Assembly: GCA_963665815.1 (NCBI GenBank)
Contig: OY762463.1
Location: forward strand, 2,336,001 to 2,400,000
DNA from: Candidatus Cloacimonadales bacterium
Lineage (GTDB): Bacteria; Cloacimonadota; Cloacimonadia; Cloacimonadales; JAIOQZ01
Direction: 5' to 3'
Length of the DNA: 64,000 nt
Shown here: one piece after another, positions 1 through 38,865 of the stretch
How the letters are laid out: the number at the start of each line of letters is the position of its first letter
How positions within the stretch are numbered: position 1 is the first letter of the stretch
Program-made: the position numbers and the translations under genes
The notes under the pieces: generated by a model
Database searches by the model: none
What the model was told of the DNA's origin: nothing
The model's input: only the letters and a program-made list of their open reading frames with translations

Positions 1-41
1 GTGTTAAATTGCGTTAATTAGTTCTTCTAAATGTTTCGATC

Positions 42-296
42 TTATTTTGCAAATATCAGAAGAAGTGCAATCACGAGAGAATAGATACCAGTAGACTCGG
101 AAACTGCCTGACCAACAAGCATTGTACGAGTAATAAGACTTGCATTTTCAGGGGTTCTTGCGATACCTTCACAAGCTTTACCTGCAACAAATCCCTCACC
201 AACTCCTGGTCCTAATGCACCAATTCCCATGCATATTCCCGCACCTAAAAGTGCAGCTGCCTTTTCAATTCCTTGAGCTAATGTAGCTGAATCCAT
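42..296 (-). CDS. atpE: F1Fo ATP synthase subunit c, single hairpin, Na+-binding type
   Basis: GxGxGxG inner helix (GPGVGEG), RTP loop, outer helix ESTGIY (E/S/T/Y Na+-site signature plus E at the position-32 equivalent). ATG at 296 follows GGAGG; the ORF track starts at 308. Confidence 0.95.
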
Positions 297-336
297 GAAT
301 TCCTCCAAGTTTTTTATTATTGTTTATGTTTTTGAT

Positions 337-1092
337 TTATTTTCCAGTAAAAATTAATAAGAATGATATTACTAGTGAATAAATAGCCGTTGATTCTGAA
401 ACTGCTGCTCCGAGAAACATTGTTCTCATGATTGTTGAACGCTCTTCGGGAAATCTGCCAAGCATATCGCAGGCTCTTCCCGCAACGTATCCAATACCGG
501 ATCCGGGACCTAGTGTTCCGAGTCCGATGGATAATCCTGCACCGACAAAAGCAATAGATGTTGAGATAATCTTAGCTAACTCAATACCTGCAGGTTGATT
601 TGGTGTTGAATACACTAAAAGAAGTGATACAACAAGTGCAAATATTGATGAAGTCTGAGCAAGTGCCTGTCCAACAAGCATATTGGTCATAATTGCGTTT
701 CCGTGTTTTGGCATTCTACCAATTGATTTACATGCCTGTCCACCGACGTATCCGGCTCCCATTGCAGGTCCTACTGCTCCAATTCCCACTGCGAGACCGG
801 CAGCCAGTAATGCTGCAGCTTTGAACCATCCGCCTTCCGGTGTATCAAAACCACCGAAAAGGAGAAGCAATGCAATTACAAGAGAGAAGATACCTCCGGT
901 ACCGGTAGCAGCCTGTCCAATCAGCATTGATCTGAATATTGAGTCCTGTGCCTTAGGCTGTTTCATTAATGCATAAGCAGCTTCATCTGCAATCACACCT
1001 GAACCTATACCGGTTGTAACAGATGCAATACCAACAGATAAACCGGCTCCCAAAAAACCAGCCATTCTAATTATTGAAGTTGTAATTTCCAT
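337..1092 (-). CDS. atpE: Triplicated ATP synthase subunit c (three fused hairpins, one conserved Glu)
   Basis: Three c-subunit repeats with loops KQP, RMP, RFP and outer helices QAATGTGGIF, QALAQTSSIF, AAVSESTAIY; lies between atpB and atpE. Confidence 0.9.
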   Translation of the reverse strand: MEITTSIIRMAGFLGAGLSVGIASVTTGIGSGVIADEAAYALMKQPKAQDSIFRSMLIGQAATGTGGIFSLVIALLLLFGGFDTPEGGWFKAAALLAAGLAVGIGAVGPAMGAGYVGGQACKSIGRMPKHGNAIMTNMLVGQALAQTSSIFALVVSLLLVYSTPNQPAGIELAKIISTSIAFVGAGLSIGLGTLGPGSGIGYVAGRACDMLGRFPEERSTIMRTMFLGAAVSESTAIYSLVISFLLIFTGK

Positions 1093-1107
1093 ATATTCTC
1101 CGACAAA

Positions 1108-2043
1108 TTATTCTTCGTTAATTTCAACACCGATATAAGTCAGTGCCAGCATTGTGAAAACAAATGCCTGTACGGTTCCCACGAATACACCAAAAAACAG
1201 TCCAAGTCCAACAGGCAATATAATGAATTTTACAAGTGATGAAACCACAAGTATAATGATTGCTCCACCAAGGATGTTACCGAAAAGACGGAAAGCGATT
1301 GAAACTGCTTTAGCAAGCTCTCCAACAAGATTTAATGGGAATAAAAACCACAATGGTTCTGCATATCCTTTCAAGTAAGCCCCAAAACCTTTTACCTTGA
1401 TTGCCATGAAATGAACGACTCCAACCGCAAGAATACCCATTCCAAGAGGAACGTTCAGGTTTCTTGTAGGTTCCATAAATCCAGGAATAGGAACAAGACC
1501 AATCATGTTACAGCTCCAGATGAAGATGAAAATCGTCACCACATAAGGTGTGAAATGAAGTCTGTCTTTTCCAAGGGTCTCACCTACAAAGTCTTCGAAG
1601 AAAGTATAAATCATTTCGAACAGTATCTGTGGTTTAGACGGTCTGTCAAAAAGACTTTTCTTCACAAGCACTGCTATTAATAATAGTATAATATCAAGAA
1701 TAAGCAGCATTTTCAGAAGCTTGTAAGTACCTATCGGAGTTTTGGTAAATTTCGCAAAGAAATCATAAAGATGTTCGCTGCCGAGTATGACCTTTTCGTG
1801 ACCGTGCTCAATAACGTATTCATCTGTCTGAAAATCCTCCGAAATTCTCTGTTGAAGGTCGAATTCTGTTTGTTGATGTGTGATAACAAACTTGCCTTTT
1901 TCGCCGAACTTGCCTTCTTTATCTACACCAATAACCAGTTCCTTGGTAAAGTTACCGGAAAACCATACCAGTGCAAACTCAATGACAAGAAAAATCAGCA
2001 TCAGAGTCAGCAAGCTGTTCTTTTTCTTTGATTTGTTAGCCAT
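1108..2043 (-). CDS. atpB: F1Fo ATP synthase subunit a, with N-terminal extension
   Basis: PTRNLN, SIAFRLFGN (essential Arg) and QAFVFTMLALTYI motifs. Confidence 0.95.
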   Translation of the reverse strand: MANKSKKKNSLLTLMLIFLVIEFALVWFSGNFTKELVIGVDKEGKFGEKGKFVITHQQTEFDLQQRISEDFQTDEYVIEHGHEKVILGSEHLYDFFAKFTKTPIGTYKLLKMLLILDIILLLIAVLVKKSLFDRPSKPQILFEMIYTFFEDFVGETLGKDRLHFTPYVVTIFIFIWSCNMIGLVPIPGFMEPTRNLNVPLGMGILAVGVVHFMAIKVKGFGAYLKGYAEPLWFLFPLNLVGELAKAVSIAFRLFGNILGGAIIILVVSSLVKFIILPVGLGLFFGVFVGTVQAFVFTMLALTYIGVEINEE

Positions 2044-2431
2044 TTGATCCTCTATAGTATTTATTATTTTTAAACTGACGGTAAAACTCGTAGATGTATA
2101 TAATTATCTGTGAAGATAAAAGCCCGGCTCCAAAAACCATAATATTGGGTTTCATAAATTTAACGATTATTGCCGAGTACACTGCAAGAAACAGAAAGCG
2201 AAGAAAATACCCTTTTGATGATCTTTTCTTCGTACCTGTAATTCCAAGCTGCAGGCTTCTATATACATCGAAAGCTAACCAAAGGAAAAAAATCAGGCTA
2301 CCCAGACTACCAGTAATCCAGGCTAACGACATTTTAATATCGAATGGTATTGCTATTGTCGCAACTATGATTGTCAAGAAATTAATTCCCGCAATTGTAA
2401 TAATGTATTTTTTGTTTCGCGTTGAAAGCAT
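2036..2431 (-). CDS. atpI: ATP synthase protein I
   Basis: 131-aa four-TM basic membrane protein overlapping the atpB start; GYFLRF motif. Confidence 0.75.
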   Translation of the reverse strand: MLSTRNKKYIITIAGINFLTIIVATIAIPFDIKMSLAWITGSLGSLIFFLWLAFDVYRSLQLGITGTKKRSSKGYFLRFLFLAVYSAIIVKFMKPNIMVFGAGLLSSQIIIYIYEFYRQFKNNKYYRGSNG

Positions 2432-2501
2432 TGTTTATCTATCCTGTATATTCGTGTTATCTCATTCTATGTTCTTTCTAAATCCATAATATATAATGAA
2501 G

Positions 2502-3074
2502 TTATCTATTTTGTTTGTCAAACTTTATTAATATTGCAGGATCAATTTTTTCACCTGACTCTATTATCTCAAAGTGAAGATGAGGATCTGTACTCTTTCC
2601 AGTATTGCCTACAAGCGCAATTACGTCATCAATATACACATACTCTTTTAACTTTACAAACACTTTTGACGCATGTGCATATTTTGTTTTATATCCGTTC
2701 AAGTGATCAATTACAAGATAATTTCCATAAATTTCATCATAACCTTTATCAACAACAACCCCCACTGCAGATGGAACTATCTTTGTTCCTGTAACCGCAG
2801 CTAAATCAATTCCTTTATGTATATCGGAGAATCGCTGACTGACGACATACTTCCCGTAAACAGGAACCTGACGGGGAATACTGTCACTATAGTCATTATA
2901 ACGTTTCTTACCTGATCCGGATTTATTCGATACTGTACTTACCTTAAAATTTTCCAACTCTCCTGTAAGTTGAACAATCTCTGCTTTCTGTTTGCCGACA
3001 AGGCTGAACTGAAAATAGACTGCCCCAATCAGTAATACAATAATTAAGAGAAGTCCTGCCAGTATAACTTTCAT
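2502..3074 (-). CDS. M23 family metallopeptidase with N-terminal membrane anchor
   Basis: HKGIDL, YAH and GNTGKSTDPHLHFEI motifs. Confidence 0.92.
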   Translation of the reverse strand: MKVILAGLLLIIVLLIGAVYFQFSLVGKQKAEIVQLTGELENFKVSTVSNKSGSGKKRYNDYSDSIPRQVPVYGKYVVSQRFSDIHKGIDLAAVTGTKIVPSAVGVVVDKGYDEIYGNYLVIDHLNGYKTKYAHASKVFVKLKEYVYIDDVIALVGNTGKSTDPHLHFEIIESGEKIDPAILIKFDKQNR

Positions 3075-3075
3075 A

Positions 3076-3924
3076 TCACTTCAAAAGTTTTTTCAGAAGC
3101 TGTATTCTCTCGTCTTCATTCTTATAGAAGAATGATATTTTGCCTTTGCTGTTCTTGTCAGCAATTTTTACTTTGAATCCAAAGTTCTTCTTAAGTTGAA
3201 GTTCCATCTCACCTAGAACAACTTTTTTCCCTTCAGGTACTTTAGGAAGCTCAGTTTTGTCAGGAGATGCCAGAAATTCTTTTGCTGCTTTCTCGGTTTT
3301 CCTTACAGACAGCTCATTCTTGATAATAAAATCTGAAAATTCAACCTGATTCTCTTCCGGTAACGTAAGTATTGCTCTGGCATGACCTGATGATAGTTTC
3401 TGCCCTCTGACAAGCTCCCTGACCTCAGGATGTAGCTTTAAAAGCCTGAGAGAATTAGTTACAGTCGCTCTGTCTTTACCAATGATTTCCGATATCTGGG
3501 CATGAGTTAAAGAGAATTCCTCATGAAGCTGCATATATGCCTCTGCCTCATCCATAGAGTTCAAATTCTCTCGCTGTATGTTCTCAATAATTGCAAATTG
3601 CAAAAGTTGTTTCTTAGATACACTTCTTATTATCACAGGAATCTCACTGAAGCCTGCCAGCTTGGAAGCTTCCAGTCTTCGTTCTCCCGCAATCAGTTCA
3701 TATTGTGAATTCTCACACTTAGAAACGATTATCGGCTGAATAAGCCCGTTTTCTTTTAATGACTGTGCCAGTTCCTGAAGTTTTACCTGATCGAAAACTT
3801 TTCTCGGCTGATATCTGTTGGGTCTTATTTTACTTACATCAATTGTTGTAATCCCGGTTGTTCTGTCCGTGGATTCCGGCCCCGATTTTATCAGAGCATC
3901 AAGTCCTCTTCCTAATCTACTCAT
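3076..3924 (-). CDS. parB: Chromosome partitioning protein ParB/Spo0J
   Basis: LGRGLDAL N-terminus, QPRKVF, IAGERR, ENIQRENL and HTH. Confidence 0.97.
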   Translation of the reverse strand: MSRLGRGLDALIKSGPESTDRTTGITTIDVSKIRPNRYQPRKVFDQVKLQELAQSLKENGLIQPIIVSKCENSQYELIAGERRLEASKLAGFSEIPVIIRSVSKKQLLQFAIIENIQRENLNSMDEAEAYMQLHEEFSLTHAQISEIIGKDRATVTNSLRLLKLHPEVRELVRGQKLSSGHARAILTLPEENQVEFSDFIIKNELSVRKTEKAAKEFLASPDKTELPKVPEGKKVVLGEMELQLKKNFGFKVKIADKNSKGKISFFYKNEDERIQLLKKLLK

Positions 3925-4679
3925 CTTTTTATCACTTCCGCCGCAAATTGCAAATAATTGCGCGCGCCTTTGGATGTTATATCATAATGAAAAATTGATT
4001 TACCAAAACTCGGTGCTTCACTGAGCTTTACATTTCTATGTATAATTGTGTTAAATACTTTTTCCCTGAAATAGCGTCTTACTTCTTTTGCTACCTGATT
4101 TGAGAGATTTAGTCTTTTATCATACATTGTAAGCAGAACTCCCAGAATATTCAGGTCAGGATTAAGATTTTTCTGAATAAGATTTACAGTATTTAAGAGC
4201 TGACTTACTCCCTCAAGAGCAAAGTACTCACACTGAATAGGTATAAGTACATCTGTACACGCAGTAAGAGCATTAACCGTAAGTAACCCGAGAGAAGGAG
4301 GACAATCAATGATAACATAATCATATTTGTCATTAATGCTCTCTAATGCTTTTTTTAGCTTATGTTCCCTTGAGAATTCTTTTACAAGTTCTATTTCTGC
4401 ACCTGTAAGGTCTATATTGCTTGGCGCTAAGTCAAGATGTTCTATATATGAAGGAACAATAACGTCCTCAATGTTAACTTTTTTAACCAGTGCATCATAA
4501 ATATGTATCTTCAGGTTAGAAGTATCTACACCCAACCCGCTAGATGCATTACCCTGAGGATCAAAATCAATCAACAGGGTTCGTTTTTCATGAATTCCCA
4601 GAGCTGCTGCAAGATTGACTGAGGTAGTAGTTTTACCAACTCCCCCCTTTTGATTCACAACAGTTATGATTTTTTTCAT
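3921..4679 (-). CDS. parA: Chromosome partitioning ATPase ParA/Soj
   Basis: Deviant Walker A NQKGGVGKTT, DPQGN, DCPPSLG, EAPSFG. Confidence 0.97.
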   Translation of the reverse strand: MKKIITVVNQKGGVGKTTTSVNLAAALGIHEKRTLLIDFDPQGNASSGLGVDTSNLKIHIYDALVKKVNIEDVIVPSYIEHLDLAPSNIDLTGAEIELVKEFSREHKLKKALESINDKYDYVIIDCPPSLGLLTVNALTACTDVLIPIQCEYFALEGVSQLLNTVNLIQKNLNPDLNILGVLLTMYDKRLNLSNQVAKEVRRYFREKVFNTIIHRNVKLSEAPSFGKSIFHYDITSKGARNYLQFAAEVIKR

Positions 4680-4680
4680 T

Positions 4681-5292
4681 CTATTTAAATACCTTTATAA
4701 GTTTTCTGGTTCCGATAGCCGGATGGCTGACATCAATAATCTTTTTCTTCTTGAAAATGTCAGTATCATCATGATTCTCTGATTTATATAAAATCATGCA
4801 ACCATTGTTTTTAAGTATCCTCATAAGTACTTTTTTGAACTGTGGAAGGATTCTTACGGATCGACATACAATAACATCAAAAAGACCTTCCCATTCATCA
4901 ACAGGACACTCTTCTAATCTGTACGAAACAGGAAAACATGAATCTAAGTCAAGATTTTTGACAATTTTTTTCAGGCATTCTATCTTCTTCTTTCTGGAAT
5001 CAAGCAATACAACTTCAGAGTCGGGATACATAATACTCAATGGTATACCCGGAAGCCCACCGCCAGTACCGAAATCAAGAATAGTTTTTCCTGCAAAATT
5101 ATAATGATCTACAGAGAGCAGAGAATCCATTATATGAATTGTCCATATTTTATCAGGATTTGTTTTACGTGAAACAAGGTTAACCTTCTGATTTTCCTCA
5201 AGCAGTAATTCATGATATCTCTCTATGAGAGAATATTTTCGTTCGTCAGAAAATCTTTCTGAATAGAATTCAGTAAATACTTTTTTAGACAT
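4681..5292 (-). CDS. rsmG: 16S rRNA m7G527 methyltransferase RsmG (GidB)
   Basis: NLVSR, HIMDSL and DFGTGGGLPGIP motifs; synteny with parAB. Confidence 0.93.
   Translation of the reverse strand: MSKKVFTEFYSERFSDERKYSLIERYHELLLEENQKVNLVSRKTNPDKIWTIHIMDSLLSVDHYNFAGKTILDFGTGGGLPGIPLSIMYPDSEVVLLDSRKKKIECLKKIVKNLDLDSCFPVSYRLEECPVDEWEGLFDVIVCRSVRILPQFKKVLMRILKNNGCMILYKSENHDDTDIFKKKKIIDVSHPAIGTRKLIKVFK
5161..5176. promoter_or_regulatory. parS centromere-like site
   Basis: TGTTTTACGTGAAACA, one mismatch from the palindrome TGTTTCACGTGAAACA, about 0.5 kb from parA. Confidence 0.85.
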
Positions 5293-5613: not shown

Positions 5614-8600
5614 GTGACTATGAGATACATTAATATTTTTCTAATTTTTATTTTCTGTTTTCAGCTGCATGCAGTTGTACAGGAATCCGCATCATTAAAA
5701 GACTTTCTATATGGTGAAACCGATCAAACCGCTTATGACAACTTTCAAAGTCATATTATTGAAGGAGTTGATCATAACATTAACGACCACGCTCCTTACG
5801 ATCCGCATACCGATGGATTCGGAACATTCACTGTCCCAACGGATACCGATACTCTGAACTGGGCACAACTTATTCAGTTTTTTCTGGATGAAAACCTGCA
5901 ATCTGCCGATTCATTGATTCAGGAATTAAATCTACCTTATGAAATTGTTGAATTCAATGATACCGATGTAAACAGAAACTACATTATGTTAAGAGAGCTT
6001 GTTGATACAACATATGTTGATACTAACAGCACAGATGGTTATATTGAACGTGGCAGCTTTAACAAAGGCTGGGGACTATACATATATAACCCAAACAGTT
6101 TTTATGATAACATAATTACTACTCCTCACCCAAGCGATGACTTTATCACAATACCGGTTTCCTGCTATGCATTCCAGGAACTCAATGCAAAATACTGGCT
6201 CATAAGCAATGTCAGCCGTGAAGCCGCTCACAGTGGAACAAACTTTACAAATGGTACATCACTATCTGATCCAACCAGAAATTCCTGCCACCCATACAAT
6301 ACTACTTACAAAGCAATTGCCAATAAAGTAAGACAAGAGACAGGCGAAAGAGAATTCTGTGTACAAATTCACTCGTATGACTGGGATAATACCGGTCCCC
6401 ATAGACCTATAGAACTGTCAATGGGACCTTTTAATGATAAAACATCCCTTCCAACCAGAGACTTCAGCAGTCAGCATCGAGATCTGGTTAATTTTACAGA
6501 TGAGATAGTTGTTCCTGCAAATTCGGTGGGAATTCATGACCAGATCAGAGTTGAAGACTACTATTGCATAAATAATGGAACAGAACCAATCTATTTCTAT
6601 GGAGAAAATCAGGACTATGCAATAGATAACCAGATATGGCTTGAAGGGTATCATTATAATGTTCAGATGAGATATACTAATGACAATTATAATGATTATG
6701 AAGTATTCGACCCGTTTTTCCATATTGAAATGCACGAACTTCCTTATGTATATGCGACTAATGATTCGACCTACAGATGGTTTTATGAACAGACCGGTCC
6801 GTCATTTAAATCTAGATTCGATAAAATGTTCGTTTTTTATGCCCCGTGGGTGGATGCCTTAGATGAAGCTATGAGATACTATAACAGGAGAAATGACTAT
6901 CAGACACCTGATGCTCCCCAACTGACCCAGCTGTCAACTCTGCCTGAAATCTCCTGGACACGTGCTGATTGTTATGATTTTGCAACATATCGTATCTTCT
7001 ACTCAGACAGCACAATAACAGATCCGCCGGACAGTACGGTAAGCTATATTGACAGGAACAGCATGGAAACTTTAGCCCAGCCTACATTCAACAGTTATAC
7101 TGATGAAGTAGTTTCCCTTATAGGTAAATATGTCAGAGTTCAAACTGTAGACCAGAACGGGCATGAATCTGACCTGTCCAATGAAATCATTGTAGTATCA
7201 AGCAATGTAAATATCAGTCAATTCAGTATTACTCCCGGAGACAATGGTGTAACAGTATCATGGACAACAACAAGCCAGACAAACAACTCAGGATTTCTGT
7301 TGAAACGAACAGAATATCCATTTGATCAGACTCAGACTCTTTTCAGCTATGTTTCTGATCTGGCAATGCTGGGATACAATCAGGCAGGAACACGAAATTA
7401 TTCAGTAACTGACAATTCTGTTGTAGATGGCGGAATTTATAAGTATTCATTGTACTCTCACAATAGTCAGTTGAATGCTGATGTTCCCCTGTATCTGAAT
7501 CAAGAGCTAAATATTGTACCTTATTATAATCTGGTATTAGATCGAAACGGAGTAACGGAAGAAAGTACATTCGGAATGAATTTCTTTGCTTCGGATGGTT
7601 ACTCAGATGATTTTGATGAGACTACATCCCTGTACAACAGGTCTCAATATGTAGTCTTTACAAGTCCTCCTATGCCAAGATCTTATGAAACAATGATTCA
7701 TGAAGCATTCGATCCAAATGAAGTATGGAAAGAGTGGCCTGTTAAAATAAAGAATCAGTCAGGAGAAAACGGTGAAGTATACATGGATCCTTTACCTGCA
7801 TCAATGCATCAGGGAGGAAGGTTATTCATGACAGACGGTACAAACTGTATCAATCTTCTAACTGATACTTTAGCAGTGCCTAACGGCATCAGTGGGGACT
7901 ATTACACAATGTACTGGGGTAATATTCAGCCAAATATCAGTCAGAACATGGATATTACTAAATACTACCATGCTGGCGATACACTCACATTGAACTGGAG
8001 TTCTGACAGAGAATATATGATTAAAAAACATTATCTGACAGTTATGGACCATTCCGGCACACAAACGCTGGTAGATTCAATCTATTCTACTACTAACAGT
8101 TATGAGATTATTCCGGATGGAACATACTCCGACTCTGTTTTCTTCACTCTTCATACAATACTGTACGACGATGATGAAATTTCAATTGATTTCCCAGTTA
8201 TTCATGTTTATAATAATACACAGAGCTACGCTCTTGAAGAAGGTATTCAGCTACTGAATGTACACAACCTGAACTCAAATATTAATATAAATACAATGCT
8301 GAGCGATCTTGTTCATTTTTACAGTTATGATGACAGTTCTTTCACCCAGCATATTACAATGACCTCTGGGACCTATGCAGTAGAATCTGATCAGACCTAT
8401 CAATTTTCTGAGCAAACTCCTGCATACCCGAATTCCACAAACTCTGTTTTGCTTTCACAAGGATGGAACCTGATAGGATCTCCATTCCCTCATGATTATC
8501 CATTATCTGCAGTCAAAATCATTCAGAATAATCAGGAGACAACTTATAATCAGGCTGTATTAGATGGAATCATTGAGGGTTATGGGCTTGACAATTCCGG

Positions 8601-9441
8601 ATTTATAACTGAAGAAAGAGTTATTGAAAATGGTAAAAGCCTGTGGATTTACAGCTTTGAAGATTCTCTTGAAATGGAATTTACGACTTATCCTGTCAGA
8701 GATTCACTGGAGTTTCAATATCCGGAATACCAGTTTGTTAATGTTGTAGTTTCTGATATGACTGAAGAGAATCAGGATTTATTCACTACAGGTCACTACG
8801 AATATGGTTTTGAAGAGTTTGATATAGGCTTGGACAGAATGTGTCCTCCAGATAACTTCAAGCAGATAAAAGCTTACACATATGACGATGATTATTGTTA
8901 TTTCAGGAATCTGAAGCCTTACATCATCGACATAAACCTTGATACAGAATACAATTTGAGAATACATTCTCCAGCCGGAGACTCAGTTAAACTGTTCATT
9001 GATGATGCTAATTACAGAGTTGAGTATTCATTCTATGTTTTCGTAAACGGACAACAGAGAAGATTGAGATACGGGCAGGATCTGGTTCTCTATAATGAAA
9101 CAGGTACGCTGGATCTGATTTTCAAAATACAGGATTATGTAACATCCAACGATGTGAACACTTATGAATTTGTTCCACTCGCAAACTATCCGAATCCTTT
9201 CAATCCAGAGACAACTCTTAATTTCTCAATCCATAAACCTGAACATGTTGAACTTAAAGTTTATAACTTAAAAGGTCAGCTTGTAAAAACCCTCGTTGAT
9301 GAAAAAATGGAAGCAGGTATTCATAAAGTAGTATGGAAAGGCAGAAACAACAAAGACAGACAAGTCGCATCCGGAGTTTACTTCGTTAAACTGAAAGCCA
9401 GCACAAATAATGATATCAGGAAAATGATATTATTGAAGTAG
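5614..9441 (+). CDS. Large secreted multidomain protein: putative Zn-hydrolase N-terminus, FN3/Ig-like repeats, T9SS/FlgD-Ig C-terminal domain
   Basis: Signal peptide; TPHPSDD...QIHSY...HIEM; C-terminal NYPNPFNPET...WKGRN...ASGVYF...KMILLK. Confidence 0.8.
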   Translation: MTMRYINIFLIFIFCFQLHAVVQESASLKDFLYGETDQTAYDNFQSHIIEGVDHNINDHAPYDPHTDGFGTFTVPTDTDTLNWAQLIQFFLDENLQSADSLIQELNLPYEIVEFNDTDVNRNYIMLRELVDTTYVDTNSTDGYIERGSFNKGWGLYIYNPNSFYDNIITTPHPSDDFITIPVSCYAFQELNAKYWLISNVSREAAHSGTNFTNGTSLSDPTRNSCHPYNTTYKAIANKVRQETGEREFCVQIHSYDWDNTGPHRPIELSMGPFNDKTSLPTRDFSSQHRDLVNFTDEIVVPANSVGIHDQIRVEDYYCINNGTEPIYFYGENQDYAIDNQIWLEGYHYNVQMRYTNDNYNDYEVFDPFFHIEMHELPYVYATNDSTYRWFYEQTGPSFKSRFDKMFVFYAPWVDALDEAMRYYNRRNDYQTPDAPQLTQLSTLPEISWTRADCYDFATYRIFYSDSTITDPPDSTVSYIDRNSMETLAQPTFNSYTDEVVSLIGKYVRVQTVDQNGHESDLSNEIIVVSSNVNISQFSITPGDNGVTVSWTTTSQTNNSGFLLKRTEYPFDQTQTLFSYVSDLAMLGYNQAGTRNYSVTDNSVVDGGIYKYSLYSHNSQLNADVPLYLNQELNIVPYYNLVLDRNGVTEESTFGMNFFASDGYSDDFDETTSLYNRSQYVVFTSPPMPRSYETMIHEAFDPNEVWKEWPVKIKNQSGENGEVYMDPLPASMHQGGRLFMTDGTNCINLLTDTLAVPNGISGDYYTMYWGNIQPNISQNMDITKYYHAGDTLTLNWSSDREYMIKKHYLTVMDHSGTQTLVDSIYSTTNSYEIIPDGTYSDSVFFTLHTILYDDDEISIDFPVIHVYNNTQSYALEEGIQLLNVHNLNSNININTMLSDLVHFYSYDDSSFTQHITMTSGTYAVESDQTYQFSEQTPAYPNSTNSVLLSQGWNLIGSPFPHDYPLSAVKIIQNNQETTYNQAVLDGIIEGYGLDNSGFITEERVIENGKSLWIYSFEDSLEMEFTTYPVRDSLEFQYPEYQFVNVVVSDMTEENQDLFTTGHYEYGFEEFDIGLDRMCPPDNFKQIKAYTYDDDYCYFRNLKPYIIDINLDTEYNLRIHSPAGDSVKLFIDDANYRVEYSFYVFVNGQQRRLRYGQDLVLYNETGTLDLIFKIQDYVTSNDVNTYEFVPLANYPNPFNPETTLNFSIHKPEHVELKVYNLKGQLVKTLVDEKMEAGIHKVVWKGRNNKDRQVASGVYFVKLKASTNNDIRKMILLK

Positions 9442-35016: not shown

Positions 35017-35928
35017 ATGAAAAAACTGTTCCTGAAACAGGTAATGATGAATCGTGTACTATATGCACTGATCCCAATTTCATTGATGGCTGTTTATCTG
35101 TATGGCTTCCGAGTTCTGGGGGTAATTGCTGTGTCTAATCTTGCAGCATTCCTGACAGAATATCTCTTTGCAAGACAGAAAAAAGTCCCGAAAGTGTCAA
35201 TGGCAGTGTTTGTCACCGGTTCTCTGGTTGCTCTTACGTTACCTCCTACAATTCCATTCTGGATTGCTGCGGTAGGTTCTGCTTTCGGAGTAATGTTTGG
35301 AAAAATGGTTTTTGGCGGATTTGGTATGAATGTGTTCAATCCGGCTATTGTTGGTAGAACATTCATCTACATATCATTCCCTAAGTATATGACAGTACAA
35401 TGGCTGAAACCTTTTGAAGGATTCCCCGGCGGATTCCTGCACTGGATGCAGCCAGATAATATTACTGCAGCTTCACCAATTATTACATTCCGTGATACAG
35501 GTGTAATGGAGTCATTCACTAAGATATCACTGGGAACAATCCCGGGGTGTATAGGTGAGACTTCAGCAGTACTGATTCTTGCTGCTGCAATATATCTTAT
35601 TGTTACAAAAACAGCTAAGTGGCAGCCTATGGTTGGCTGTCTGATAGGTTTTGCTGTCAGTACACTCATATTCTATGGAAAAAGCCCTTTGTTCTTCATG
35701 CTGAGCGGTGGATTCATGTTCGGTACAGTATTCATGGTGACTGACCCTGTTTCAATGCCTAAAAATAAAAAAGCTATCTGGATCTACGGAATCCTGGTTG
35801 GATTCTTAACCGTGTTTATTCGCAGATTCTCACTTTTTGCAGAAGGTTTCATGTTCGCCTTATTACTGGCAAATGTAACCATGCCGATTGTTGAGTACGC
35901 AATGAGCTACAAGCCGAAGAAGAAGTAA
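35017..35928 (+). CDS. nqrB: NqrB/RnfD family membrane flavoprotein
   Basis: KMVFGGFGMNVFNPAIVGR, PGCIGETS, FMVTDPVS, EGFMFALL; FMN motif DNITAAS. Confidence 0.85.
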   Translation: MKKLFLKQVMMNRVLYALIPISLMAVYLYGFRVLGVIAVSNLAAFLTEYLFARQKKVPKVSMAVFVTGSLVALTLPPTIPFWIAAVGSAFGVMFGKMVFGGFGMNVFNPAIVGRTFIYISFPKYMTVQWLKPFEGFPGGFLHWMQPDNITAASPIITFRDTGVMESFTKISLGTIPGCIGETSAVLILAAAIYLIVTKTAKWQPMVGCLIGFAVSTLIFYGKSPLFFMLSGGFMFGTVFMVTDPVSMPKNKKAIWIYGILVGFLTVFIRRFSLFAEGFMFALLLANVTMPIVEYAMSYKPKKK

Positions 35929-35938
35929 GGAGATATTC

Positions 35939-36562
35939 GTGGCAGAAAAAACACCTTTCACAGAAACCAGAATATATCCGATCATCTTTATGATGATAGT
36001 GACAATTGTATTTGTCGGACTTCTGGCTTTCTTTTATCATTCATCCAAAGAACGTATTGAAAGTAACGAACAGCTTGCGTTCCAGAAAAAGATTCTGGCT
36101 TTGTTCAGCCTTTCTGCGAAGAATCCTTCCGAAGCATTCGGAAAGTATATAAAAACCGAAACAAAGGATGACCTGACATTTTACAAAGCAGAAAAAGACG
36201 GAGCTATGCTCGGGTATGCTTTTGTAATTAACGGCCCGGGACTCTGGGGATCAATCAACGCTGTTGCTGCTTTCACGACAGATTTGAAGCAGATAATAAA
36301 GTTTGATATTCTCAATCAGAATGAAACACCGGGACTGGGCGGCAGAATTACCGAAGACCAGTTCAAAGATCAATTCAATAATAAAGTACTCGTAAAAGAT
36401 AATAAACTAATAGACTTCAAACTTATTGCTGAAGAAGAAACACCGAAAGCAAACGAAATCTGTCAGATTACCGGAGCAACGTTTTCTTCTCAGTCTGTAA
36501 CCAAGCTTATATACAAAGAAATGATACAAATCAGTAAGAAGATGGGATTTTCTTATGACTAA
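35939..36562 (+). CDS. nqrC: NqrC/RnfG FMN-binding subunit
   Basis: GPGLWGSI (NqrC-like), ETPGLGG and ITGAT flavinylation motif; GTG start after AAGGAG. Confidence 0.88.
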   Translation: MAEKTPFTETRIYPIIFMMIVTIVFVGLLAFFYHSSKERIESNEQLAFQKKILALFSLSAKNPSEAFGKYIKTETKDDLTFYKAEKDGAMLGYAFVINGPGLWGSINAVAAFTTDLKQIIKFDILNQNETPGLGGRITEDQFKDQFNNKVLVKDNKLIDFKLIAEEETPKANEICQITGATFSSQSVTKLIYKEMIQISKKMGFSYD

Positions 36563-37154
36563 AAAAGAAATATTCATTACGTCGGCATTTACAGAGAACT
36601 CTGTCTGGAAACAGATTCTGGGGATTTGCTCTGCACTCGCTGTAACTAACTTGATGATGAACAGTCTGGTAATGGGATTAGGAGTAATATTCACCCTGGC
36701 TCTCTCAGGTTTCACAATTTCACTGATCAGAGACTTTATACCAAGACGTGTTCGTATGATGGCACAAACACTGATAATTGCGTCCTACGTGATTATTGTT
36801 GATATAACACTTAAGGCTTATCTACCGGAAATCAGTAAGAATCTCGGACCATATGTCGGTCTGATTATTACAAACTGTATTATTATGGGTAGAGCAGAAG
36901 CCTTTGCAGGTAAAAACAGCCCGATAGATTCCATGATCGACGGAATAGGTGCAGGTTTCGGATATACATTCGTTCTGCTGCTTATTGCTTTTGTCAGAGA
37001 AATCTTCGGTTTCGGTTCAATCTTCAACATTCAGATACTCGGTGACTGGTGGACAAAATGGTCTATTATGGTTATGGCTCCAAGTGCATTCTTTATACTT
37101 GCTGTTATAATCTGGATCATTAACGGACCTCTGGCAGCTAAGAAAGGGAAATAG
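36555..37154 (+). CDS. nqrD: NqrD/RnfE subunit
   Basis: LGICSALAVT and VGLIITNCIIMGRAEAF with both Fe-ligand cysteines. Confidence 0.9.
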   Translation: MTKKEIFITSAFTENSVWKQILGICSALAVTNLMMNSLVMGLGVIFTLALSGFTISLIRDFIPRRVRMMAQTLIIASYVIIVDITLKAYLPEISKNLGPYVGLIITNCIIMGRAEAFAGKNSPIDSMIDGIGAGFGYTFVLLLIAFVREIFGFGSIFNIQILGDWWTKWSIMVMAPSAFFILAVIIWIINGPLAAKKGK

Positions 37155-37163
37155 GAGATAATT

Positions 37164-37754
37164 ATGGTAGATGTATCATCAATAGTAATATTCTTCGCAG
37201 CAATTTTCACCAGTAATATCCTGCTGACGAATTTTCTCGGAATGTGTTCTTTCCTTTCAGTATCTAAAGAAGTAGAATCATCATTCGGACTTGGTATGGC
37301 AGTTGTGTTTGTCATGACAGTTACATCAGCACTGAATTATGTTGTATACCATTATATACTCGTACCTTTCGATATTGTGTACCTGCAGTACATAGTATTC
37401 ATTATCGTGATCGCCGCTTTTGTACAGCTTACAGAGATCGTGATAGAACGATTCTCACCGGTTCTGTATTATTCTCTCGGAATATTCTTACCTCTGATTA
37501 CCGTGAACTGTGCGATATTCGGGGTAGCTTTATTCATGATTATCCGAAAATACAGCTTTATTCAGGCAGTAGCTTACGGAGCAGGTGGCGGAATCGGTTG
37601 GATGCTGGCAATACTTATGCTTGCAGGTATCAGAAAGAAACTTAAAGACAAGTTCATACCAACAGGTCTGCAGGGAGCAGGAATAAGTCTTATAATTACC
37701 GGAATCATGGCTCTGGCGTTCATCGGGTTCTCCGGTGTTGCGGTTATTCAGTAG
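37164..37754 (+). CDS. nqrE: NqrE/RnfA subunit
   Basis: FLGMCSFL and GIFLPLITVNCAIFG motifs. Confidence 0.9.
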   Translation: MVDVSSIVIFFAAIFTSNILLTNFLGMCSFLSVSKEVESSFGLGMAVVFVMTVTSALNYVVYHYILVPFDIVYLQYIVFIIVIAAFVQLTEIVIERFSPVLYYSLGIFLPLITVNCAIFGVALFMIIRKYSFIQAVAYGAGGGIGWMLAILMLAGIRKKLKDKFIPTGLQGAGISLIITGIMALAFIGFSGVAVIQ

Positions 37755-37767
37755 GGAGGACAAAAAA

Positions 37768-38865
37768 ATGAACGTTATCATACTGAATATACTTATTGCA
37801 ACAGGTATCAGTACTTTTCTGGCAATACTTCTCGTTATAGCCGAAATGCTGTTTGCCAACTACGGTGATTGTGAGATTGAGATAAACGGTAAGAAGAAAG
37901 TTACTGTTAAAGGCGGAGGAACACTGCTTGGTGCTCTTGCAGATAACAAGATATTTGTACCTTCTGCCTGTGGTGGAAGAGGCTCGTGCGGGTTCTGTAA
38001 ATGTAAGGTGGAATCCGGCGGAGGACCTTTACTCCCAACTGAAAAACCGTTTCTGACTGCTGCAGAACAAAAAGACAGTATCAGACTATCCTGTCAGGTT
38101 AAAGTCAAAGAAGACATCAAAATAAACATACCTGAAGAGATTTTCAATATCCAGAAGTTCACTGCTGTTGTAGAAAAGATAGAAGACTATACATATGACA
38201 TTAAAGGTGTAACATTCAAGCTTATTGAGCCAAAGGAAATCAACTTCAAAGCAGGACAATATGTTCAGCTTCACACTAAGAAATACGGCAAAGTAAAACA
38301 GGTGGTTTCCAGAGCATACTCAATATCCAGCTCACCGGATTTAAAAGACAGACTTCAGCTTATTATAAGACGAGTACCTGACGGAATCTGTACAACCTAC
38401 GTGCATGATTTCCTTAAGGAAGGTGATGAAGTGAACTTTACAGGACCATACGGTGATTTCTTTATCAGAGATACAGATGCAGAGATTATTTATATTGCTG
38501 GCGGATCCGGAAAAGCTCCTATCAAATCTATGATGGACTATTTTGCGAATCATCACAGTGACAGAAGAATGGTGTATTTCTTTGGTGCTAGAACAGAACA
38601 CGATCTTTATCTGACCGACTACTTTAACGAGTTCGAGAAGAAGCTGAACTTCACTTATGTACCGGTACTCTCTCAATGTGAGAACAAAGACTGCTGGAAT
38701 GGCAGAATGGGCTATATTCCGGAACATTTCGATGATTTCCTGACTAATCCGAAGAACTCGGAAGCGTATTTATGCGGATCCCCCGGTATGATAGCTGCAG
38801 TTGAGAAAGCTCTCATAAAATCCGGTGTCCCAAAAGATAATATATACTACGACAGTTTTGCTTAA
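37768..38865 (+). CDS. nqrF: NqrF-like NADH-oxidising subunit (TM anchor, 2Fe-2S, FAD, NAD)
   Basis: SACGGRGSCGFC...RLSCQV, RAYS, GPYG, AGGSG, YLCG; ATG 37768 follows GGGAGG. Confidence 0.88.
   Translation: MNVIILNILIATGISTFLAILLVIAEMLFANYGDCEIEINGKKKVTVKGGGTLLGALADNKIFVPSACGGRGSCGFCKCKVESGGGPLLPTEKPFLTAAEQKDSIRLSCQVKVKEDIKINIPEEIFNIQKFTAVVEKIEDYTYDIKGVTFKLIEPKEINFKAGQYVQLHTKKYGKVKQVVSRAYSISSSPDLKDRLQLIIRRVPDGICTTYVHDFLKEGDEVNFTGPYGDFFIRDTDAEIIYIAGGSGKAPIKSMMDYFANHHSDRRMVYFFGARTEHDLYLTDYFNEFEKKLNFTYVPVLSQCENKDCWNGRMGYIPEHFDDFLTNPKNSEAYLCGSPGMIAAVEKALIKSGVPKDNIYYDSFA

Follow-up and report, generated by a model that had tools for sequence, protein, structure and literature searches.

A fused three-hairpin F-type c subunit encoded beside a Na+-type c subunit in the ATP synthase operon of a Cloacimonadota bacterium

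[quoted passage not shown] To our knowledge, the sole characterised exception among bacterial F-type enzymes is the hybrid ring of Acetobacterium woodii, in which one position in eleven is empty; in this organism, the gene of the multi-hairpin subunit c1 is located ahead of those encoding one-hairpin Na+ c subunits. Fused hairpins also occur in the triplicated proteolipid of Methanocaldococcus jannaschii, an A-type subunit which belongs to an A1Ao operon and assembles into a homomeric ring. In the structures of I. tartaricus and E. hirae, Ser/Thr residues of the outer helix complete the Na+ site of the neighbouring hairpin. According to PMC9171764, the A. woodii ring is composed of nine one-hairpin c subunits and one V-type c (c1), and archaeal c subunits with 1, 2, 3 or 13 hairpins exist. 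The ring of Fusobacterium nucleatum is described in PMC3692424 as a homomeric c11 with 11 full sites.

A different arrangement was found in a Candidatus Cloacimonadales bacterium, within a 64,000-nucleotide stretch of contig OY762463.1 (hereafter, the window). Features are listed in Table 1. The operon has the order atpI-a-c3-c-b-delta-alpha-gamma-beta-epsilon and encodes a complete F1Fo enzyme in which c3, a gene for a three-hairpin c subunit, lies between those of subunit a and of a normal c. The atpI-like gene occurs ahead of atpB, the same placement as in E. coli, and subunit a has an N-terminal extension of ca. 100 residues ahead of its ATP-synt_A domain. Since the operon runs past the window edge, it was read further in locus L005 (G000:C1:2324001-2338500, G000 being the closed genome of this organism), where c is followed by b, delta, alpha, gamma, beta and epsilon (Pfam ATP-synt_B, OSCP, ATP-synt_ab twice, ATP-synt and ATP-synt_DE). 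A terminator-like hairpin (17-bp stem and T-run, L005 6738-6701) is located just past epsilon. The promoter/terminator scan detected no terminator-like site and no regulatory element between c3 and c; its promoter-like matches were outnumbered by those in shuffles (17 versus a mean of 23.9) and give no sign of internal regulation. In G000 (3.96 Mb, 1 contig), all four PF00137 matches fall in c3 and c and a single alpha/beta pair occurs: this operon is the only rotary ATPase operon of the organism. The genome further encodes Rnf/Nqr-type complexes, a Na+-decarboxylase beta subunit and a membrane pyrophosphatase.

Table 1. Coordinates of the ATP synthase genes and of the c3 hairpins, as positions of the window
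Feature	Position	Strand	Remarks
atpI-like gene at the head of the operon, small membrane protein of 131 aa	2036..2431	-	PF03899 25.0 bits vs cut-off 25.1, borderline
atpB, Fo subunit a, 311 aa	1108..2043	-	PF00119 155.1 bits, residues 112-304
c3, atpE1-like, three-hairpin c subunit	337..1092	-	ORF, 251 aa, six predicted transmembrane helices
c3 hairpin 1, ca. residues 1-84	841..1092	-	Gly64 (codon 901-903) in carboxylate column, Ser31 in inner-helix ligand column, loop KQP
c3 hairpin 2, ca. residues 85-170	583..840	-	Gln146 (codon 655-657) in carboxylate column, Ala113 in inner column, loop RMP
c3 hairpin 3, ca. residues 171-251	340..582	-	Glu233 (codon 394-396), Ile200 (codon 493-495), outer helix ESTAIY, loop RFP
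atpE2-like normal one-hairpin c subunit	42..296	-	84 aa from ATG at 296; 88 aa (42..308) if TTG at 308
Start of the remaining operon (b to epsilon in L005)	1..41, runs past left end of window	-	ORFs and Pfam in locus L005

The first-pass annotation had read the c3 ORF as three c hairpins and had proposed a scan for three ATP-synt_C domains; the scan did find three stretches of PF00137 (140.4 bits for a cut-off of 24). With 251 aa, three hairpins and six helices, the product departs from the one-hairpin norm for c subunits, ca. 70-90 residues per polypeptide. When the three hairpins were aligned (MAFFT and hmmalign) to the small c and E. coli c, G64, Q146 and E233 fell in the column that holds D61 in E. 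coli and the Glu of the small c, and S31, A113 and I200 in that of E. coli I28 and the small-c inner Glu, exactly as first read. The codons agree, being the reverse complements of acc (Gly), ctg (Gln), ttc (Glu) and aat (Ile) at the positions given in Table 1. Glu233 of hairpin 3 is therefore the sole carboxylate of c3 at the ion position, hairpins 1 and 2 having none in the column of the essential E. coli D61, and it has no polar inner-helix ligand: Ile200 sits at the column where Na+ rings carry Gln or Glu and E. coli c carries Ile28. All motifs on which this reading had been based (ATGTGGIF, LAQTSSIF and VSESTAIY in c3, GPGVGEG...ESTGIY in the next gene) were located.

A complete Na+ signature was taken as an inner-helix Q/E together with an outer-helix E-[STQ]-[STQ]-x-x-Y in the same hairpin (bioRxiv 10.64898/2026.10.01.756066). 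By this rule, which considers the sequence alone, hairpin 3 of c3 has the outer-helix part (ESTAIY) but an Ile in the inner helix, and hairpins 1 and 2 have neither part. The full signature previously attributed to the next gene was recovered: the 84-aa c, in which Pfam detects one ATP-synt_C stretch (65.7 bits), has both parts in the two-carboxylate motif GPGVGEG...SESTGIY. Its top single-hairpin PDB matches are the c subunits of F. nucleatum (3zk1, 6e-21), which has the same GPGxGEG...ESTGIY motif, and of I. tartaricus (1yce, 1.1e-20). This motif is kept in 9 of 10 aligned c genes (that of G000 and 8 of those in nine relatives' loci), the inner E being replaced by Q in one genome (G016). For the c gene, the ATG preceded by GGAGG is a likelier start than the upstream TTG. 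The assignment of c3 to the bacterial F-type was likewise borne out by NCBIfam, with 127-157 bits for F0F1 c models (NF009999, 156.7 bits for a cut-off of 124). The same scores rule out an A/V-type origin or an archaeal triplicated A-type proteolipid, the V-type K model NF004913 reaching 63.4 bits for a cut-off of 211; the Pfam scan of the operon and the closed genome revealed no accompanying V/A-type genes.

A taxonomic survey of the three-hairpin architecture, also suggested by the first-pass annotation, showed that, of 232 genomes in the phylum Cloacimonadota, 123 have a full-length c3 (E<=1e-30), G000 included, or 123 of 131 when families f2, f3 and f4 are excluded, so that a chance arrangement is ruled out; the c3-less families that were checked have a V-type operon with a V-type K gene instead. 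These c3 genes are currently annotated as "ATP synthase F0 subunit C" or "hypothetical protein". Relatives with four or five hairpins were observed in Desulfobacterota, Dependentiae and Hydrogenedentota. Among 40 relatives of G000, 31 have c3, and a one-hairpin c directly adjoins it in 30 of the 32 c3-bearing genomes (the 31 relatives and G000). In G016, c3 and c are found on separate contigs and the genes 3' of c3 are unrelated, indicating that strict adjacency is not required.

In an independent sediment assembly, one contig covers positions 1-2453 of the window with 142 substitutions and no gaps; in c3, 30 of the 35 differences listed fall in third codon positions. The dN/dS of c3 is 0.04 with a genome of the same genus (0.11, 0 and 0.04 for hairpins 1, 2 and 3) and 0.10-0.13 with other genomes for which dS was computable, values indicating that all three hairpins are under purifying selection. 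Relative to c, the gene evolves at roughly double the rate (dN 0.22-0.30 versus 0.07-0.17). A search of sequencing runs retrieved no RNA run with this stretch. That the fusion arose as an artefact of assembly, a concern raised at the outset, or of annotation, or that c3 is a decaying and functionless paralogue, has next to no probability: all are ruled out by the closed genome, the occurrence in 123 of 232 genomes, the gapless sediment contig and the dN/dS range of 0.04-0.13, and the fusion is genuine.

Comparison of 115 c3 members revealed that carboxylates at the ion position vary, with none in 10 proteins, one in 55, two in 49 and three in a single one, corresponding to at least 14 changes in number on the tree. 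Position 64 of hairpin 1 is E in 61 members, Q in 42 and G in 12, and position 233 of hairpin 3 is E in 94, Q in 20 and S in one, with at least 10 Glu/Gln swaps at the latter; position 146 of hairpin 2 is Q in all members but one (114/115). An inner-helix Glu also occurs in hairpin 1 of 50 members, 41 of which keep the Glu of hairpin 3 as well. Ile200 is kept in 110 of the 115 and Ser234 is invariant, even where residue 233 is Gln. In the loops, P46, R126 and P128 are invariant and P215 is kept in at least 90% of the sequences. Ring-type features, namely the K/R-x-P loop motifs and the outer-helix Ser/Thr, are thus conserved in hairpins that have no carboxylate.

The AlphaFold2 model of c3 (pLDDT 94.9, pTM 0.89) has six helices (residues 5-44, 46-79, 85-126, 128-162, 172-213 and 215-248). 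Its best structural match is A. woodii c1 (4bem_J; E 3.7e-8, rmsd 1.4 A over 162 columns, 41% identity). c1 is also the best match at the sequence level (2.2e-27), where residues 8-164 of c3 pair with residues 24-180 of c1 and the Gln146 hairpin aligns with the Gln hairpin. V-type K/c subunits come second, with a TM-score of 0.80-0.85 on the target and 22-26% identity. Co-folding of c3 with c gave a median score of 0.55, the best of three controls reaching 0.00, with at least 95% of contacts agreeing between runs and a partner pLDDT of at least 84. Of 80 solved complexes, 58 reach the pass mark, as do 2 of 110 mismatched pairs, and scores of 0.60 or less comprise just 7 of these 80 complexes together with both passing mismatches. 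The co-folding lends weak support to a c3-c association and, since 4BEM is already solved, the pass may reflect likeness only.

Like c3, c1 of A. woodii (AtpE1; PDB 4BEM chain J) is a multi-hairpin c of an F-type operon with Gln for Glu in one hairpin. The parallel drawn by the first-pass annotation holds in that c1 is the closest solved relative and that c3 lies in an F1Fo operon directly ahead of a normal c with the Na+ motif. The context of c3 is accordingly of the c1 type: a multi-hairpin c gene with a Gln-for-Glu hairpin, whose neighbour in the F1Fo operon encodes a one-hairpin Na+ c. Differences are nevertheless marked. Whereas c1 has two hairpins and one site, c3 has three, with consecutive ion-blind Gly and Gln hairpins, and the Glu of its third hairpin is opposite an Ile, with no polar inner-helix ligand. 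The site count is exactly one in c1 but 0-2, rarely 3, in the c3 family, which spans the phylum Cloacimonadota, the c1 type being known from few acetogens. Finally, c1 has been seen in a mixed ring (4BEM and PMC9171764), while ring membership of c3 is predicted. The M. jannaschii triplicated proteolipid (subunit K/c) resembles c3 in its three fused hairpins, which outnumber its carboxylates; c3 differs in having F-type hairpins, an F1Fo operon (delta, epsilon and b) and a normal c encoded beside it. V-type K/c subunits (Enterococcus hirae NtpK, 2BL2; eukaryotic Vo c) also have one carboxylate for more than one hairpin, but with two hairpins and in V/A-type operons.

The likely explanation is that c3 is a ring-forming spacer subunit which extends the A. 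woodii type of hybrid rotor and assembles with the one-hairpin c in a mixed ring. As a head-to-tail fusion of three F-type c hairpins, it would then be a rotor subunit of the organism's rotary ATPase, side by side with the Na+-binding c of the neighbouring gene, as c1 is with c2/c3 in A. woodii. Such a subunit would occupy three ring positions and offer at most one ion-carrying carboxylate (Glu233), so that each turn of the ring would move less Na+ than expected from its size, and c3 probably lowers the number of Na+ moved per ATP. In an 11-hairpin ring, one copy of c3 would leave 9 sites and a ratio of 3.0 Na+/ATP, versus 3.67 for c11; if Glu233 were silent, there would be 8 sites and 2.7 Na+/ATP. 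For the possibly tunable ratio of the first-pass annotation, no regulatory element was found between c3 and c. The data establish the sequence features, operon setting, conservation, purifying selection and fold of c3, while we infer that it enters the ring, in how many copies, and how it alters the ion/ATP ratio. Two or three consecutive ion-blind hairpins would leave ca. 65-98 degrees of an 11-hairpin ring with no torque-generating step. We know of no characterised synthase that tolerates a gap of this size, and this counts against the mixed ring, as do the separate contigs of c3 and c in G016 and the faster evolution of c3 relative to c. A variant of the mixed ring, which we regard as unlikely, is that c3 is a fully ion-blind three-hairpin spacer within an otherwise Na+-type ring. 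Glu233, facing Ile200 as D61 faces I28 in E. coli, might stay protonated or carry H+ rather than Na+, which would explain the Glu/Gln swaps at position 233 as well as the 10 of 115 members with no carboxylate.

Alternatively, c3 may form its own homomeric ring (e.g. four copies with 12 hairpins and 4 sites) as an alternative to a c-only ring, giving the cell two "gears" in place of one mixed ring. Every feature required for lateral packing of hairpins is present in c3, the two genes occupy separate loci in G016, and archaeal multi-hairpin c subunits form homomeric rings (PMC9171764). This is nonetheless improbable given that 30 of 32 genomes have c3 and c as neighbours in a single operon with no terminator-like site in between, that the closest solved relative, c1, belongs to a mixed ring (4BEM; PMC9171764), and that 10 of 115 members lack any carboxylate, in which case their homomeric ring could move no ions. 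A role outside the rotor, c3 being a c-derived accessory membrane protein such as a c-ring assembly scaffold or a stator-side element, would fit ion sites that are evolutionarily dispensable (0 to 2 carboxylates, at least 14 changes), and the AtpI-like assembly factor indicates that such operons do carry accessory membrane proteins. The conservation of three cytoplasmic K/R-x-P loop motifs and of the outer-helix Ser/Thr, a fold superposing on a ring subunit at 1.4 A and the weak co-folding pass (0.55 versus 0.00) all argue against this role, which we consider very improbable.

A literature search, which did not extend to Brandt & Müller 2015 or to the 4BEM paper, found no published description of a three-hairpin F-type c. 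Because c3 genes are annotated as plain subunit C or as hypothetical, metabolic models assume a standard ratio. A lower ratio would yield more ATP per ion in synthesis, but with a higher threshold, and in pumping a steeper Na+ gradient per ATP. Were c3 fully ion-blind, a sector of ca. 98 degrees, nearly one whole 120-degree F1 step, would have no coupling ion, and the design should favour ATP-driven Na+ pumping or synthesis at very low Na+/ATP; together with the four- and five-hairpin relatives, it would represent a widespread and undescribed bacterial way to set the F-type gear ratio. Purifying selection on c3 persists while its carboxylate number shifts between 0 and 2. This bears on the old question of how many consecutive inactive positions the a/c interface can pass while still making ATP, which the natural 0-, 1- and 2-site variants make directly testable. 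If c3 does insert two or three consecutive ion-blind hairpins, Cloacimonadota would possess, phylum-wide, a second and more radical route to a low Na+/ATP ratio, which is relevant to anaerobes living on small energy margins.

The first 2.4 kb of the window are occupied on the minus strand by four consecutive genes, as indicated by ORF listing and Pfam matches (see table), and the row continues past the left edge of the window with genes for b, delta, alpha, gamma, beta and epsilon, each with a strong Pfam match, up to a terminator-like hairpin whose stem is 17 bp long. In subunit a, the ATP-synt_A domain begins only at residue 112, and the ca. 100 N-terminal residues, which comprise one hydrophobic stretch and a charged segment, have no family match. 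On the 5' side of the operon lie a gene for an M23 peptidase, detected by Pfam, and parB-, parA- and rsmG-like genes recognized by eye, the parA-like product having the Walker-A motif KGGVGKTT. The rsmG-atpI neighbourhood resembles that of E. coli, which suggests that the operon is located near the replication origin. On both sides of the operon are genes for very large secreted proteins ending in type IX secretion sorting domains: two ORFs on the left have Por_Secre_tail and FlgD_ig matches, while a 1275-aa ORF in the window displays by eye a similar tail (NYPNPFNPETT...VYNLKGQLV).

Features in and around the atp operon and related loci
Feature	Location	Strand	Evidence or content
AtpI-like protein	window 2036..2431	-	Pfam ATP-synt_I, 25.0 bits (cut-off 25.1)
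Fo subunit a, 311 aa	window 1108..2043	-	ATP-synt_A, 155 bits
Three-hairpin c3, 251 aa	window 337..1092	-	ATP-synt_C matched three times, 140.4 bits
One-hairpin small c, 84 aa	window 42..296 from ATG	-	one ATP-synt_C match; ORF listed from TTG 308; GGAGG ahead of the ATG at 296
M23 peptidase, parB-, parA- and rsmG-like genes	window 2502-5292	-	Pfam and by eye
Large secreted protein	window 5614-9441	+	sorting-domain-like tail, by eye
Large secreted proteins, left of window	L005 778-5822	-	sorting domains
nqrBCDEF-like cluster	window 35017-38865	+	NQR2_RnfD, FMN_bind, two Rnf-Nqr membrane subunits, NqrF-like Fer2-FAD-NAD protein
Second Rnf/Nqr-type pair, same genome	G000:C1:1988876-1990068		
V-type locus of a relative (G009)	L022 59-1935		subunit I gene, then 171-aa two-hairpin K with one Glu
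Five-hairpin c locus, Desulfarculus MAG	L027 3319-6567		a, 405-aa c, normal two-carboxylate c, b', b

The third gene of this row encodes c3, in which the HMM scan identified three c hairpins as proposed by the first-pass annotation. When these were aligned with small c and with E. coli c (from NC_000913), Gly64, Gln146 and Glu233 of hairpins 1 to 3 fell in the column of the E. coli D61, and Ser31, Ala113 and Ile200 in that of I28, where small c has an inner-helix Glu. The Ile200/Glu233 pair is thus as in the H+-type E. coli c, whereas the outer helix (ESTAIY) is of the Na+ type. The adjoining small c has the full Na+ signature (GPGVGEG...SESTGIY), and its top single-hairpin matches in solved structures are both Na+ rings, those of F. 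nucleatum (3zk1, 6e-21) and I. tartaricus (1yce, 1.1e-20). Every detail observed earlier in these two genes, from the Gly/Gln/Glu series and its S/A/I inner-helix counterparts to the signature of small c, proved correct.

An AlphaFold2 model of c3, based on a 115-row alignment, consists of six long helices forming three hairpins (pLDDT 94.9, pTM 0.89). The top Foldseek match of this model in the PDB was c1, the two-hairpin subunit of the Acetobacterium woodii hybrid ring (4bem_J; E 3.7e-8, rmsd 1.4 A over 162 columns, 41% identity), with V-type K/c subunits ranking behind it; no PDB chain spanning all three hairpins was found, the best TM-score on the query being 0.61. Co-folding of c3 with small c gave a weak pass (median 0.55, best control 0.00), with contact agreement of at least 95% and partner pLDDT of at least 84. 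In calibration, 58 of 80 solved complexes reached the mark, as did 2 of 110 mismatched pairs, scores of 0.60 or less comprising only 7 of the 80 solved complexes and both passing mismatches; as 4BEM is itself solved, this pass may reflect likeness only.

The first-pass annotation had also raised the possibility that the fusion is an assembly artefact. Against this, an independent contig from a sediment study spans window positions 1-2453 without a gap, differing by 142 substitutions, and, among the best-supported 40 of 140 differences, 30 of the 35 located in c3 are at third codon positions. c3 has full-length homologues in 31 of 40 relatives and, at E<=1e-30, in 123 of the 232 genomes of the phylum, this one included. 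The dN/dS of c3 relative to a same-genus genome is 0.04 (0.11, 0 and 0.04 for the successive hairpins; Nei-Gojobori), and 0.10-0.13 in six more distant pairs with unsaturated dS, protein-level change being about twofold faster in c3 than in c (dN 0.22-0.30 versus 0.07-0.17). Of the 32 genomes with c3 in the relatives set, this one included, 30 have a one-hairpin c directly adjoining it, the exceptions being G002, whose contig stops within c3, and G016, in which the two genes are on separate contigs. In G016 the operon seems split, one contig (L033) having atpI-a-c3 and then an unrelated gene, and the other (L034) unrelated genes and then c (with Gln for Glu at the inner position), b, delta and alpha; mis-binning is possible, this genome having ca. 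5% contamination. These data indicate that the c3 gene is real, conserved and under selection.

Genomes devoid of a c3 match cluster in three families, f3 (0/98 positive), f2 (0/2) and f4 (0/1), while the other families are positive in 123 of 131 cases. Among five such genomes searched, the three from f3 and the one from f2 each encode a single two-hairpin ORF of 166-183 aa, which in G009 (f3) comes after a V_ATPase_I gene, and the fifth (f4, 90% complete) gave no match. Because the K subunit of families without c3 has one Glu for two hairpins, carboxylates are fewer than hairpins in the rotary ATPase of every Cloacimonadota genome inspected. A preprint (bioRxiv 10.1101/2021.10.08.463351) assigns a V/A-type enzyme to the "engineered" Clade I and an F-type to the "environmental" Clade II, a split with which our c3-bearing and V-type-bearing families agree; its passages on this split do not mention the three-hairpin gene.

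Site variation was assessed in 115 sequences, i.e. c3 and 114 proteins of 235-262 aa from the best 120 matches; the other six, three with 404-406 aa, one with 321 aa and two fragments (208 and 222 aa), were left out. The carboxylate position is E in 61, Q in 42 and G in 12 for hairpin 1, Q in 114 and E in one for hairpin 2, and E in 94, Q in 20 and S in one for hairpin 3, whose inner position is Ile in 110. Carboxylates per protein thus number none in 10, one in 55, two in 49 and three in one; Ser234 and the loop residues P46, R126 and P128 are invariant (115/115). On a quick maximum-likelihood tree built with the six trait columns masked and rooted at midpoint, the carboxylate count changed at least 14 times (hairpin 1 at least 6, hairpin 3 at least 10). 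All 35 proteins of a basal clade have E/E, Q and I/E in hairpins 1 to 3, and the pair formed by c3 and a twin of 98% identity (S/G, Q, I/E) is the sister group of a large clade with S/Q, Q, I/E. Because the root is a midpoint one, we can only infer that the direction of change is loss.

A search of representative proteins with c3 returned 1573 matches at E<=1e-3, of which 73 reached E<=1e-30. When the best 150 and the query were divided into hairpins by a small HMM, 27 proteins had two, 51 three, 65 four and 4 five hairpins, with one protein each having 7, 8, 12 and 14; in many of these multi-hairpin proteins, middle hairpins have Gln. The five-hairpin c of a Desulfarculus MAG (E,Q,Q,Q,E) has relatives at 51-67% identity in other Desulfobacterota records (L028-L032). 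A four-hairpin family of ca. 318 aa from Dependentiae/Babeliales (30 loci, L035-L064), with carboxylate positions mostly E,Q,E,D, accounts for 28 of the 65 four-hairpin representatives, and one four-hairpin cluster is named Hydrogenedentota. A full-text literature search of main texts found no description of a three-hairpin F-type c subunit, although an earlier mention is possible.

The host genome is closed (3.96 Mb, 98.7% completeness), its closest named records being Cloacimonadales/Cloacimonadota MAGs that are 98% and 68-69% identical. Its four PF00137 matches all fall within c3 and small c, and ATP-synt_ab matches the alpha/beta pair and two other ORFs, of 443 aa and, weakly, 430 aa, which we take to be FliI- and Rho-like. 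With no PF00137 match elsewhere and a single alpha/beta pair, this operon is the organism's sole rotary ATPase. Two Rnf/Nqr-type clusters, one Na+-decarboxylase beta subunit and one membrane pyrophosphatase are also encoded, in line with the reliance on sodium that Williams et al. (PMC8542988) inferred for the energy metabolism of environmental Cloacimonadota. Just upstream of the nqrBCDEF-like cluster no NqrA-sized ORF was found, the preceding ORF being a subtilase gene (1311 aa) on the opposite strand.

In the structures of I. tartaricus and E. hirae, a Na+ ring site consists of the Glu and inner Gln/Glu of one hairpin, to which the outer helix next to it adds its Ser/Thr and a backbone carbonyl. 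Applied to the residues of c3, this scheme would make it a ring segment of three positions with one atypical site: the positions of hairpins 1 and 2 would be empty, the Gln-Thr-Ser of hairpin 2 would flank Glu233, and the invariant Ser-Thr of hairpin 3 would complete the site of the next normal c. All Na+ F-type rings characterized up to 2013 have 11 hairpins (PMC3692424). Assuming that number here, rings of one c3 and eight c, two c3 and five c, or three c3 and two c would carry 9, 7 or 5 sites, i.e. 3.0, 2.3 or 1.7 Na+/ATP, compared with 3.67 for c11. As argued by Litty & Müller (PMC9171764), V-type c subunits lower the ratio by site deletion at constant ring size, with ATP synthesis still possible. 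Overall, c3 extends the known hybrid-rotor principle in a new form, and we infer that it acts as a segment of a mixed ring.
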